Shown in pieces: positions 2,676 through 9,233 of a stretch of 64,000 bases of DNA. Source of the DNA: Candidatus Obscuribacteraceae bacterium (GTDB taxonomy: Bacteria; Cyanobacteriota; Vampirovibrionia; Obscuribacterales; Obscuribacteraceae); NCBI GenBank assembly GCA_044229845.1, contig JBGASG010000001.1, positions 608,001-672,000 of the forward strand, given 5' to 3'. How positions within the stretch are numbered: position 1 is the stretch's first letter; each line of letters begins with the position of its first letter. The position numbers and the translations under genes are program-made. The notes below the pieces were generated by a model. It had not been told where the DNA came from, did not search any database, and was given only the letters and a program-made list of their open reading frames with translations.

Positions 2676-3437
2676 CTAAGCCCCGGCGGCTTGCGGCACC
2701 GGCAATTCAAGGGCCCGCAAGAGTGGCAACAGGTCGACATTGCCCGAGATGAGCTTCACAAGATTGCCTTGATTGAGTTGCGGCACGCTAATTGAGGGGC
2801 TGTACGGCACGCAGCCCAGGTAGGGCACGCCGGTGCGCTGCCTGAGCGCCAGAGTGAGGGCGTCGGAGTCGATCACTCTGGTGCCGAAGTCAGGTGAGAC
2901 CTGGACCGAGACCATGGCGATCACATTCACCTGGCGCTTGCGCAAAAACGTCGCCGCCATCATGAATTGCTCGATTGTGCGCGCCCCGAAACGACCGACC
3001 AAAATTGCCGGCCAACCGATGTGCCGAGCAAAGTCGGCGCAATCCTGCCAGAAGGTCACCTGATCGTTCATCCAGGCAAGCGGCGTGGCGCACGAACCGG
3101 GCATCTCCAGAAATACGGTCGGCTCCGTGTCATAACACCACGCCACCGCTTTTGCTACCTGTGCTCCGTCGAAGCCGGCCGGTTCAGTCGCCAGAGCCAG
3201 CGGATAATCTATGGGACTGCGACCGATGCGTTGCATAAATTCCAACTCGGCCGCCACGTTGAGTTGTGACCCTATGCATAGCGGCTTAGCTGCGCGTGTC
3301 TGATATCCCATTTGCTGCAAGGTTGTCGACAAGCCTGACGCTACCACGGTTTTGCCGCACGAAAATTCCGTGCCGAAGATTATCAGTCCGCGGGGCGGCT
3401 CTACATGTAGTGGCATGGTGGTGTGCAGTCTCTTCAC
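2676..3437 (-). CDS. bioD: Dethiobiotin synthase-like P-loop protein (divergent)
   Basis: IFGTEFSCGKT Walker A, KP motif, DFARHIGWPAILV and C-terminal GVPYLGCVPY follow the BioD layout; several canonical residues diverge. Start may be at 3416. Confidence 0.7.
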   Translation of the reverse strand: MKRLHTTMPLHVEPPRGLIIFGTEFSCGKTVVASGLSTTLQQMGYQTRAAKPLCIGSQLNVAAELEFMQRIGRSPIDYPLALATEPAGFDGAQVAKAVAWCYDTEPTVFLEMPGSCATPLAWMNDQVTFWQDCADFARHIGWPAILVGRFGARTIEQFMMAATFLRKRQVNVIAMVSVQVSPDFGTRVIDSDALTLALRQRTGVPYLGCVPYSPSISVPQLNQGNLVKLISGNVDLLPLLRALELPVPQAAGA

Positions 3438-5186: not shown

Positions 5187-8100
5187 ATGAGTACAGGTAT
5201 CAATAACCCCGAGCGGTTGCCGGTCGAAGACGAGAAGCTCACGCTGCCCGCAGAGCCGGCCGGCGCTGACGGTCCGGCATGGCTTTCGAACCCGACTACA
5301 GGCAACATCGAGCTGGTGTCGCTCCAGTACGGTTCCGCCGAGATGGCGTCGTTGCGTGGACTGTACTACGGCGGCGATTTTCAGCTGCCCAAGTTCGATG
5401 CGCCGGCCAGGGTCAAAGACAACATTACTATCGGTCAAGACGGCAAAGTTACCATCGACTATCCGGCAGTTGCCGGAGAACCCCACAAGTCACGCACACT
5501 GGTCCCGGATGGCGCCGGCGGCTTCAAAGAAATAATCACCAAGACCGACGGCGAAGGCACCTCCCACCTGGTGAAGCGCGGCAACGAATGGTTCGCGTCC
5601 TTCCAGGGGATGGAATTCCCGATGAAGGGAGTCAAAGTCGACCCCAACACATACGAAGTATCGATCAAAAATCCGTCCGGACTCTGGCGCCGCGAAGGCA
5701 CGGACGGCTCCGTGCGTGACGATAAGGAGAACGCCGACGGGTCGCTGACCACCGTTGGACCGAACGGCGAAGTGCAGCGGATTACCAGAACCGACAACAG
5801 CACTATCGAGCAACGCGATGCCAACACGATCGTTGAGAGTGCGGGCGGCAAGTCGACGACATGGAAGAAACAAGGCAACGAATGGGTTTCGGATAACGGG
5901 CAGAAGCGCACCGACTTCAAACTCGATGCCAACGGACTGACCACCTACAAAAACGTCGGCGACGGTTTGACTTACCGCATCGCGGGCGATGGCAGCCAGG
6001 TCATCGAAGGCGAAGGGCGTTCGAAGATTACCCTCGATGCCCAGAATCGTGTGAAGAGCATTGAATGGCCGGATAGAAAGGAACGTCGCGAGTTCGAGTA
6101 CTTCGGCGAGAGCAAAGACATCAAAGTCGTGAAGAAGACCGACCTGCAGACCGGTACCACATATACCAACACCAGAGAGAATGCCCAATCTACTAAGTGG
6201 CATGTTGAAACCAACAACGGACAGCGCATCTCAGACTGGAACGGCAACGTGTCGGTTTTGCCCGGCGGAGCTTATTCGCGACAGTTTCTCGATGGACCGC
6301 ATGCCAAAGATGGTAAATGGTTGACCTGGTGGCCGGACGGCAAAGAAACTCATGACACGGTAGACGCGCAGGGAACCCGCACCTCTTACGATGCTCAAGG
6401 CAAGGTGCTCTTCAAGCAAGCAACCACCGGCGCCCGTACGGAATACGATGCCGCCGGCGGCATGGCTACGGTGAAGACCAACGACAATACGACGTTCGAA
6501 ATCAAAGCCGACAAAATCAAGATGGTCGACGGCGTCACCGGTGAAACCATCAACTTCACCAAGAGTGGTGATACATGGACGTCCGACTCCAAACGCTTCC
6601 CGGGCGCTCGCAAGAACCTGGCAGTCAGTGAACAGGGTACGCTGTCCTATACAAATGAAGCCGGTGAGCAAGTTTCGGAAAGACGCGACAATACTAAATC
6701 GATTCGACGCGGTGCACAGGTCTTCGAATATGGTGCTAAAGGCGATTTGCAATCGGTCACCTTCGGCGATACTACGCGCAAATTTGAGATCAAGAACGGT
6801 GTGCTGACGGCAACCGACACCAAAGCCGGACAGGAACCGAAAGTCGTATTCGATTCGTCGAAAGTCGGCGATCCCAAGTCTGTGCGCATCAACAAAGAGA
6901 CCGGTGACATCAGCTTCACCACCGATAAAGGCGCCACCGTTGTGCGCGGCAACGGTTTGACCATCGAACTGGATAAGTTCGGCAACCAAACTAAAGTCAC
7001 TCGTCCGGATGGCAGCTCTCGCGAATTTGCCTACGTCACTCAGAAAGAGAAGCCGGCTGCGGCAGGTAGCGATCCGTATTCCTATGACGGTTCTCCCGAA
7101 GGCGCCGACAAGCCTGCGCCGGAAGGCAAGGACGTTCAGGTTCTCGCCAAGATAATCGACCGGAACGCCAAAGGCGAGATCAAAGATGAATGGACTGCCA
7201 AGAGCGACGGCACCAGAGTCACCGGCGTGTTTGTCAACACACCGAAAGAAGGACAGAAACCGCGCGAACGCGAAAACATCGAGGTCTGCCAGGACGGCAA
7301 CTACAAATTCAACAAGCCTGGCGACAAGACCGAATACGCAGCACGCCTGGGTGGTGACGGCGCTCCCGGAATGTCGGCCGACATAGAAGAAGCTCGCGAA
7401 AATCTGCGAGATGTCCTGCGCGACAAACTCGACGAATCGCAACGCGTTCGCTTCGACGCCATGATGAAACAGTTCGAACAGCGCATGGCCGATCGCCTGG
7501 AAGCCCGTATGGCTGCCGGCATCACTGCGCCGGAAAAAATCCGTCAGGAAGTCGAGCAAGCCATCAAAGGGACTTACGACAACCTGGCCAAAATGGTATC
7601 GACTCCTTCAGATCCTGCTAAGCCTACTTTTATGGATCAAGCGACCCGTGTACGTCTGGCAGAAAACTTCATGCTCCATGCCATGGATCCGATGACCATG
7701 GATCAAGGACCGTCCGGACCCGGCGAAGAGGGCGGACACGGAACGTGCTGGATTCAGGGCGCCCACATCTGGGGCATGGTGCAGCATCCTGACGCCATGG
7801 CAGACCTTCTGCGTCAGGTATCGATCGACGGGCAGTACACCACTAAGAACAGTGGCGAAAACGATCCGGCTTCAAAGACAATCAGCTTCTCCAAAGAAAT
7901 GCTGGCGATCAGACAAGGCACACAAGAATCGCGCTGGACTGTCGATCGTGCCATGAAAGAGTGGGAAGAGTTGCCTGGCATGCGTCGCCAGATCTTGAGC
8001 GATCGCAGCCCGGTCGGATTCATCTTCGACAACGTGCTGCCGGTCATCGGCGGCAGACAAGAAAAACGCATCGATGGTGGCAATTTCGATACCATCAACG

Positions 8101-8822
8101 CAGTTCGCGGTTACAATTCGGACGGTTCCTACCGCACCGAAAAGATCACCGGCTCCGGCGACATCATGTACATGGTGACCGGCGACAAACCGGCGTCGTA
8201 TCACACCTGGAACCATCCGGACCACATTCAGGATCACCTGCTCAACGTCAATCCCGGCACCTCGCAAGAAGCGAAGAACGAAAACTTCCGCCGCACCTTG
8301 CTTGAGAAGGGCAGCATCCTGACGCACACGATGAACCACACTTCCTCCAGACAGATCATTAAGGTCAACGGCGAATGGTTGGCCGTACAAGATGATCAAC
8401 ACGGCGAAAACAGTGACTATGTAGTCGGCAAAGTGACTGACCTGGCTGCTTATGCCAAAGGTAGTGATGCCGCACTGCAACGCGCGCAAGGACAACAAGC
8501 CGTGCCCCGCGTAGTCATCCCGGGTGTCGTCAACGATGTCTCCGGCCCGGTCAACGCCAGTCAAGTTCGTTACTCGCCGACGCAACGCGGACAGCAGTGG
8601 GATCGCGCCGCCGGCGGATGCCCGGGACCGGGACCATGCCCGAGCCCGGATGGTGGCAGTGAAATCTCCGGCGGTTGCGACCGGGGCGGCTGCGGCGGTT
8701 GTGGTGGTGGCGGCTGCGGTGGTTGCGGCGGCGGTGGTGGCGGTTGCGGCGGAGGCTTCTCCGGTTTTCGTCCCATGCGCCCGCGCCTGTTAGGTCGTTT
8801 GTTCGGACGCCGTTGCCGCTAG
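5187..8822 (+). CDS. Large protein: YD/RHS-like beta repeats, putative papain/calpain-like cysteine peptidase domain and Cys/Gly-rich C-terminal tail
   Basis: ATG 5187 follows AAAGGTGG. Repeats include TSYDAQGKV, TEYDAAGGM, FEYGAKGDL and LDKFGNQTKVTRPDGSSREFAY. DQG..GHGTCW at 7701-7751, then MNHT and QDDQHG. Tail GGCGGCGGGGCGGC... ends RLLGRLFGRRCR. Confidence 0.8.
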   Translation: MSTGINNPERLPVEDEKLTLPAEPAGADGPAWLSNPTTGNIELVSLQYGSAEMASLRGLYYGGDFQLPKFDAPARVKDNITIGQDGKVTIDYPAVAGEPHKSRTLVPDGAGGFKEIITKTDGEGTSHLVKRGNEWFASFQGMEFPMKGVKVDPNTYEVSIKNPSGLWRREGTDGSVRDDKENADGSLTTVGPNGEVQRITRTDNSTIEQRDANTIVESAGGKSTTWKKQGNEWVSDNGQKRTDFKLDANGLTTYKNVGDGLTYRIAGDGSQVIEGEGRSKITLDAQNRVKSIEWPDRKERREFEYFGESKDIKVVKKTDLQTGTTYTNTRENAQSTKWHVETNNGQRISDWNGNVSVLPGGAYSRQFLDGPHAKDGKWLTWWPDGKETHDTVDAQGTRTSYDAQGKVLFKQATTGARTEYDAAGGMATVKTNDNTTFEIKADKIKMVDGVTGETINFTKSGDTWTSDSKRFPGARKNLAVSEQGTLSYTNEAGEQVSERRDNTKSIRRGAQVFEYGAKGDLQSVTFGDTTRKFEIKNGVLTATDTKAGQEPKVVFDSSKVGDPKSVRINKETGDISFTTDKGATVVRGNGLTIELDKFGNQTKVTRPDGSSREFAYVTQKEKPAAAGSDPYSYDGSPEGADKPAPEGKDVQVLAKIIDRNAKGEIKDEWTAKSDGTRVTGVFVNTPKEGQKPRERENIEVCQDGNYKFNKPGDKTEYAARLGGDGAPGMSADIEEARENLRDVLRDKLDESQRVRFDAMMKQFEQRMADRLEARMAAGITAPEKIRQEVEQAIKGTYDNLAKMVSTPSDPAKPTFMDQATRVRLAENFMLHAMDPMTMDQGPSGPGEEGGHGTCWIQGAHIWGMVQHPDAMADLLRQVSIDGQYTTKNSGENDPASKTISFSKEMLAIRQGTQESRWTVDRAMKEWEELPGMRRQILSDRSPVGFIFDNVLPVIGGRQEKRIDGGNFDTINAVRGYNSDGSYRTEKITGSGDIMYMVTGDKPASYHTWNHPDHIQDHLLNVNPGTSQEAKNENFRRTLLEKGSILTHTMNHTSSRQIIKVNGEWLAVQDDQHGENSDYVVGKVTDLAAYAKGSDAALQRAQGQQAVPRVVIPGVVNDVSGPVNASQVRYSPTQRGQQWDRAAGGCPGPGPCPSPDGGSEISGGCDRGGCGGCGGGGCGGCGGGGGGCGGGFSGFRPMRPRLLGRLFGRRCR

Positions 8823-8903
8823 ACCTTCGATGCTGCAAAGCCTCAGAAAAGCACAATCCTCCAGCCTAACTCCCACTAACACCAGATAAATAGGAACAGA
8901 ACA

Positions 8904-9233
8904 ATGGCATCGCGAAAATCAACAAAGTATCTCGCCAAAGAAGTGGGTGAATTCGCCACCATCGTCGCTACTCCCAGCGACAACCAGATCGCGCCTCCGA
9001 AGCCGGTCGTCAAAGCCTTTCGTGAAGCGTTCGCCCGCGGTGGACTCGACGAAGTCGACAAACTGATCGATTCAATCAACAAGTGCCTCCTCGCTGATGG
9101 TGCTACTCTCGGGCTGGCCGACGGCTGTGCCAGCGAACTCGACGATGCCGGAAACCCTGCTTACTTATGCATCCGCTTCAAAGAATATGAAGCGCGCAAT
9201 CCATACTTTCAGCAATGGATTGAACTCAATTAA
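8904..9233 (+). CDS. Small hypothetical protein (109 aa), candidate immunity or partner protein
   Basis: ATG with AGGA upstream and normal codon usage; co-oriented 81 nt after the large protein. Confidence 0.65.
   Translation: MASRKSTKYLAKEVGEFATIVATPSDNQIAPPKPVVKAFREAFARGGLDEVDKLIDSINKCLLADGATLGLADGCASELDDAGNPAYLCIRFKEYEARNPYFQQWIELN

Follow-up and report, generated by a model that had tools for sequence, protein, structure and literature searches.

A stalked cysteine peptidase and its small partner gene in Candidatus Obscuribacterales, likely part of an unreported arsenal directed at other microbes

What might an uncultured bacterium gain from a giant protein that looks like a repeat-built carrier with a cysteine peptidase near its end, and why should its gene be followed by a very small one? 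The question is raised by a stretch of 64,000 nucleotides from a Candidatus Obscuribacteraceae bacterium (GenBank assembly GCA_044229845.1, contig JBGASG010000001.1, positions 608,001 to 672,000; this whole stretch is called the window here, and positions are counted from its first letter). The larger open reading frame (ORF), at 5187-8822 on the + strand, encodes 1211 amino acids (aa), and the smaller, at 8904-9233 (+), encodes 109 aa. An earlier interpretation made from the letters and their translations (the sequence-only reading) had put the two together as a candidate toxin-immunity module. Both ORFs are present as it described them, the Gln, Cys, His and Asp-or-Asn residues of the large protein are conserved among its relatives, and the two genes are linked well beyond this genome; the pair is likely, as we argue below, to be directed against other microbes.

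Comparison with a 99%-identical relative (locus L046) revealed 17 synonymous and no non-synonymous codon changes in the small ORF, and 87 synonymous and 4 non-synonymous changes in the protease region of the large one. This synonymous excess indicates that both ORFs are real genes, evidently under purifying selection. The closest homologue of the carrier-peptidase also shares its start Met. RNA contigs (from four runs in two studies) overlap pieces of the large ORF and, in one case, part of the small one, although they may derive from DNA.

The predicted peptidase domain

The catalytic motifs proposed from the sequence, DQG-x9-HGTCW (Cys codon at 7746), MNHT (His codon at 8337) and QDDQHG (8388), are all to be found in the translation. 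A search with residues 720-1110 gave 45 proteins, and conservation was counted in an alignment of 44 of them. Gln840 (7704-7706, +; the predicted oxyanion-hole residue), Cys854 (7746-7748, +; the predicted nucleophile) and His1051 (8337-8339, +; the predicted general base) are present in 44/44, as are W855 and Q1071, and because of this invariance the motifs would appear to exceed chance. The predicted third triad residue, Asp1070 (8394-8396, +), is Asp in 23 of the 44 and Asn in the other 21, and aligns with the N of an N-x-W-G motif in distant paralogues; two residues further on, at position 1072, His replaces the usual Trp in 36/44. In calpains the pattern is a six-residue spacing from Gln to Cys and an N-x-W-G third motif. 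Distant paralogues have both, and the protein studied here has an eight-residue insertion between its Gln and Cys.

An AlphaFold2 model of residues 720-1120 (predicted local distance difference test, pLDDT, 89.4; predicted template-modelling score, pTM, 0.91) predicts a papain fold for the tip of the protein. The putative calpain-like peptidase domain, delimited by model, fold and residue conservation, occupies about residues 834-1105 (7686-8501, +), with Cys854 opening a helix, His1051 opening a strand, and Asp1070 just past the strand that follows. In front of it lies a conserved helical pre-domain (about residues 733-833; 7383-7685, +) of four predicted helices with pLDDT about 95, in which E764, R766, T796, Y797 and R821 are invariant in the alignment.

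In a VIA structural search with the domain model, all the enzyme-named rows that cover the core, among 50 rows, were of clan CA (Z 4.9-6.8): calpain-9 (Z 6.8, 190 residues aligned, root-mean-square deviation (rmsd) 4.6), calpain-1 (6.5), UfSP2 (5.4), interpain A and streptopain (5.2) and SpeB (5.1), with Der f 1 and a C39-like peptidase also represented. The calpains, in a comparison with the two-lobed CysPc, gave the best core rows (Z 6.5-6.8, rmsd 4.2-4.6). A second VIA search returned mainly helical-bundle rows. The nearest named Atlas clusters were Peptidase_C2, at scores of 0.85 and 0.81, which are both under 0.9 and serve as leads only. Foldseek found nothing for the core model at E 0.001 (MINDY1/2 and bleomycin hydrolase appeared only at E 0.7-2), and a search of PDB sequences with the core profile gave chance matches only. 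Scans of the 1211-aa and 109-aa proteins against Pfam and NCBIfam gave no match, and none of the 24 aligned cores that were compared with Pfam models (0/24) matched any, Peptidase_C2 included. Conservation and predicted fold thus bear out a cysteine peptidase of clan CA, with calpain as its nearest likeness; the clan assignment seems well supported, whereas the family link to calpain, with Z under 8 and no significant Foldseek match, would be only a lead.

The family is large: at E 0.001 the core profile finds 1643 representatives after clustering at 50%. The named homologues belong to Candidatus Obscuribacterales, and a single-query search gave peptidase matches in 80/107 genomes of that order. 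Other classes of the phylum had weaker, multi-copy matches in 36 of 150 sampled genomes, and the examples that were fetched have no stalk. Those at L101-L110, some of them in tandem, are multi-copy proteins of 400-570 aa; their N-termini are of low complexity, and their peptidase is only distantly similar to the one studied here. Three stalk-less, near-identical members (L065-L067), in records labelled Eremiobacterota, Xenobia and Burkholderiales, are nested among Obscuribacterales cores, which could reflect either gene transfer or mis-binning.

Beyond the domain there is only a variable low-complexity tail (8502-8819, +), Gly/Cys-rich in this protein and closed by an Arg-rich tip; roughly the final 100 residues could not be aligned. 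At least 3 Arg are present among the last 12 residues in 28 of the 44 homologues (which are related to one another), compared with 80/1160 long ORFs of the genome. The Gly/Cys-rich run itself (8628-8819) is nearly private to the species, and the tails of relatives differ, often keeping the Arg-rich tip.

The stalk and its leader

Upstream of the pre-domain, about residues 78-720 (5418-7346, +) are predicted to form a YD-like, all-beta hairpin meander of about 70 strands. The short repeats reported earlier (SYDAQG, EYDAAG, EYGAKG and LDKFGNQTKVTRPDG) are where they were said to be, although the protein has only 3 [YF][DE]xxG words and no YD or RHS match in Pfam or NCBIfam; PF05593 is present in 9 of the 45 listed homologues. 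In an AlphaFold2 model of residues 72-1120 (mean pLDDT 87.5, pTM 0.53) the chain is all beta up to residue 720. Rhs and teneurin shells head the Foldseek matches of the stalk (E 3e-13), which upholds the idea of a YD-like carrier, yet with a template-modelling (TM) score of 0.10 and an rmsd of about 30 Å: as modelled, the predicted stalk forms no closed cocoon of the Rhs kind, although at a pTM of only 0.53 its overall shape is tentative. The classical Rhs core is ended by a DPxG aspartyl autoprotease, and DPxG is absent from all 1211 aa, as had been noticed at the outset. The stalk varies widely in length among paralogues, some of which lack it.

The first 75 or so residues (5187-5411, +) make up a variable, acidic, Pro-rich leader without a signal peptide. 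A motif in the leader, LPx(V/I)x(I/L), occurs in 7/21 carriers compared with 252/3582 other genes, but it was chosen by eye and is a lead only. Neither the 1211-aa nor the 109-aa protein has a signal peptide or membrane segment: the best 19-residue hydropathy of the large protein is 0.5 in N-terminal windows and 1.0 overall, in agreement with the initial impression that it has no signal.

Partner genes and tips

The 109-aa product, a predicted cognate inhibitor or chaperone, defines family A, which is alpha/beta. Its 23 matches come from 20 of the 107 genomes of the order: 16 lie directly downstream of a peptidase gene and 2 behind a family B gene (see below), so that 18/23 in total are downstream of the peptidase clade, as the sequence-only reading would have it; one of the others is at a contig break, and four weaker ones are elsewhere. 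The linkage spans at least eight genera, and the flanking genes differ between genera. In the Atlas search the 109-aa protein had no feature match, and every structure row was under TM 0.5, which speaks for neither absence nor novelty. Iteration of the family A profile turned up no other copy in the source genome (which is 88% complete, and this bounds every absence from it reported here). When residues 720-1120 were co-folded with the 109-aa protein, three runs scored 0.56, 0.01 and 0.07 against a mark of 0.32, a result that we count neither way.

Proteins of family B, about 175 aa long and without a Pfam model, are far more widespread, occurring in 103/107 genomes with as many as 20 copies, which are often arrayed; a PDB sequence search with their profile gave chance matches only. 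The source genome has 14 peptidase loci (15 ORFs, one locus being frameshifted), of which 10 have B downstream or fused, one (that considered here) has A, and three have neither. Conversely, of 16 matches in the genome to the B profile, which was seeded partly from genes of this same genome, 11 lie behind a core or are fused to one, two are in the same clusters and three are elsewhere. One paralogue (C8:79226-81829; L073:9227-11830) has Ser at the position of the catalytic Cys and a C-terminal family B fusion, and another (C8:513364-515132; L076) is in two overlapping frames with an intact family B gene downstream. Further domains found in paralogues and distant members are LysM, annexin, FHA and RHS.

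A quick tree was made of 66 cores, after partial, contig-end and duplicate rows had been dropped; it is drawn from its midpoint, and long-branch joins are possible. Family A is confined to one clade (SH-aLRT 99; 16/20 rows) plus one nearby row with B followed by A, and family B is scattered over the rest. This distribution, together with the B+A row, suggests that B may be the older partner, replaced by A in one clade via a B+A stage, so far as an order can be read from a midpoint-drawn tree.

Not all the stalks carry peptidases of this kind. Among 12 proteins of the source genome that match the stalk profile, seven have peptidase tips, three have HExxH tips and two have LysM-like ends (judged by eye). 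The three HExxH carriers are at C9:11962-15620, C22:204858-207920 and C22:60398-63391 (L135-L137). A third small family, C, is represented in the genome by only two genes, each immediately downstream of an HExxH carrier; no family C gene accompanies the remaining HExxH carrier or two HExxH homologues that have no stalk. Since A, B and C each stand behind one type of tip, the partners in this genome follow the catalytic tip and not the stalk, which by analogy is the pattern of toxin-immunity systems. Across the order, 20 loci were fetched out of 76 stalk matches, and five of these, all from one genus, have a different papain-type tip on the same stalk (L114-L118: Q-L-G-A-G-S-C ... H ... D-S-S-F-G; NCBIfam gave nothing for one of them). 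The proposal of polymorphism therefore stands in part: the stalk does carry other tips in the genome and in the order, but close relatives all keep the tip of the protein studied here, and there is no orphan tip cassette at the locus. Beside one HExxH carrier, at C9:4189-11739, there is a 2516-aa protein without a signal peptide, in which GGDEF-like and HExxH motifs were seen by eye.

The immediate neighbours of the A-linked pair are a TPR gene on one side and a convergent gene for a CtpA-type protease on the other, in generally housekeeping surroundings. There is no shift in guanine-plus-cytosine content at the pair, no promoter was found there, and terminators are not in excess. Elsewhere in the window, a divergent dethiobiotin-synthase-like gene (2676-3437, -) scores well below its family cut-off. 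Sequencing runs that contain DNA of the locus are mostly sludge and bioreactor metagenomes.

Resemblances, export and possible function

The nearest parallels in organization are papain-tipped polymorphic toxins (Tox-PL1/Imm35, Tox-PL2/Imm73, Tox-PL3 and Tox-PLC39; PMC3482391). These share a repeat carrier, a C-terminal papain fold, a small downstream gene that tracks the tip, and other tips on the same carrier. However, no Pfam match was found here to their domains or immunity families (the Tox-PL1, Tox-PL2 and Tox-PLDMTX profiles gave nothing for the query at E up to 1, or for the 24 cores), and there is no fast turnover of tips among close relatives. The Rhs/YD cocoons (RhsA, 7q97; Tse15, 8uxt; the Tre23 carrier, 7pq5) and teneurin are alike in their local hairpin meander (Foldseek E 3e-13 to 1e-9), and some homologues score with PF05593, but the global fit is poor (TM about 0.10), and DPxG, PAAR and VgrG are all lacking here. 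With calpains (MEROPS C2, Peptidase_C2) there is the same order of Gln, Cys, His and Asn/Asp, and they are the best structural neighbours of the core; what sets our protein apart is the lack of any Peptidase_C2 score (24/24 cores), a helical pre-domain of its own, the YD-like stalk, the linked partner gene, and the Asp for Asn and His for Trp of its clade. Bacterial calpains are mostly without calcium-binding sites in the peptidase domain (PMC4631099). Because the tests for DPxG, for delivery parts and for the Peptidase_C2 profile all failed, we would file the system neither under Rhs nor under calpain family C2.

In staphopain-staphostatin and similar operons, too, the gene for a clan CA peptidase precedes a small one for a cytoplasmic protein, but the alpha/beta partner A matches no fold at TM 0.5. 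Staphopain-type enzymes have signal and pro-peptides. The portions of two bacterial calpain surveys that were available (PMC4631099, PMC9380684) show no such family, with no mention of Melainabacteria in that of PMC9380684, and in the openly accessible main texts searched we found no published description of the peptidase family, although members might be listed in the supplements of PMC3482391 and PMC4631099.

How might a protein without a signal peptide leave the cell? No secretion genes adjoin the locus, as was remarked from the beginning, there is no T2SS signal peptide, and markers of T3SS, T4SS, T5SS, T6SS, T7SS and Photorhabdus virulence cassettes (PVC) were not found in the genome; VipB, FHIPEP, VirB4, tail sheath, base V (VgrG-type) and WXG100 gave no match there, with controls working. 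The genome does have two stand-alone secretins (C1:213931-229745) and two TadA-like ATPases in clusters that by eye resemble Tad/Flp operons (C19:374000-392000 and C22:226000-244000; L133, L134). These are the only export candidates found, and nothing in the present data links the peptidase genes to the Tad clusters. Myxococcus kills prey with a Tad-like pilus (PMC12075869), and the predator Vampirovibrio belongs to the same class as the present organism (PMC4451040).

The explanation that we favour, and to which we would give about an even chance, is that stalk and leader serve to bring a calpain-like peptidase to a competitor or prey cell and that it would cleave proteins there, while the family A protein would block it in the producer and its kin. 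The peptidase on its YD-like stalk would thus be exported against other microbes. Several observations weigh against this. No known delivery system for such cargo was found in the genome; the fold scores are all under 8, with no Foldseek match of the core below E 0.7; all four proteins matched by the N-terminal half (4/4) keep the same tip; and most members of the clade have a single copy of the gene, which here sits among housekeeping neighbours. As for the partners, both A and B are missing from the 1.3 kb downstream in 26 of the 66 rows of the tree, and four partner-less rows inside the A clade have intact motifs, which would be unexpected under strict immunity; an unrelated repeat protein (L099) has an A-like segment close to its N-terminus; some genomes with family B have few or no peptidase matches; and family B is weakly DcrB/PsbP-like (hhalign probability 25.6%, E 7.5e-4, with three controls under 0.5%).

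Some of these points would be accommodated if the large protein were indeed an exported peptidase and the small gene encoded a cargo-specific chaperone or export adaptor instead of an inhibitor, a reading that we think unlikely though not negligible. The weak match of the sister family B to DcrB-like proteins fits it, PsbP/MOG1-like genes beside toxins having been proposed as adaptors (PMC3482391), as do the many homologues without a partner and the paralogue that has Ser for Cys and is still fused to B; but partners change with the tip and not with the shared stalk, and an adaptor would more probably follow the delivery half. It is rather improbable, in our estimation, that the protein stays inside the cell as a regulatory protease with a role like that of eukaryotic calpain in signalling or stress response, the small protein being its regulator or substrate. 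The lack of a signal peptide and of a known cargo-secretion system, the stable single-copy clade with synteny conserved within genera, the FHA domains of some members, and the kinase-like genes that lie, perhaps by chance, near several paralogues would all be compatible with such a role, whereas a conflict system would better account for the 14 diverged loci in one genome, the tandem arrays, the frameshifted copy, the fusions to LysM and annexin, and the YD-like stalks whose tips are interchangeable. Annexin domains are described as accessories of bacterial toxins (PMC3482391).

Two further possibilities concern what the domain does. That the papain fold acts as a deamidase or transglutaminase, and does not cut its target, we consider quite improbable: the signatures given for Tox-PLDMTX (C, W, H, D, Q) and Tox-PL1 (NC-H-DxQ) in PMC3482391 are similar to the invariant set found here, which likewise comprises C, W, H, D and Q, and His stands for the usual Trp in most of the alignment (36/44), but no Pfam model of a toxin deamidase matches, most aligned relatives show the calpain spacing and N-x-W-G, and the neighbours in fold are peptidases. 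A role as an autoprotease that would release an active part, be it the cationic C-terminal tail or the stalk, has a very slender probability. The Arg-rich tip is common in the subfamily (28/44), and papain-like domains are releasing peptidases in some polymorphic toxins (PMC3482391); against this, the tail is unalignable and of low complexity, several paralogues stop no more than about 20 residues past the third motif, and no conserved cut site was seen. The autoprocessing that the sequence-only reading had entertained is unlikely because only that variable tail lies beyond the domain.

A broader extrapolation from delivery of the peptidase into other cells, which we regard as doubtful, would make the Obscuribacterales contact-dependent antagonists or predators, equipped throughout the order with signal-peptide-free effectors on open YD-like stalks that have swappable peptidase tips and their own immunity families (A, B and C), and that leave the cell by a novel exit, possibly involving Tad and secretin components.

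What is gained at once is a name for a large clan CA peptidase family, comprising 1643 clusters at 50% identity and not represented in Pfam. Three families of partners are added as candidate protease inhibitors, one of them without a fold match. If it is true that export needs no known cargo-secretion system, then the route would itself be new. The two genes are likely part of a hitherto unreported arsenal for use against other microbes, and they offer a clue, open to experiment, to how an uncultured lineage related to the predator Vampirovibrio lives.

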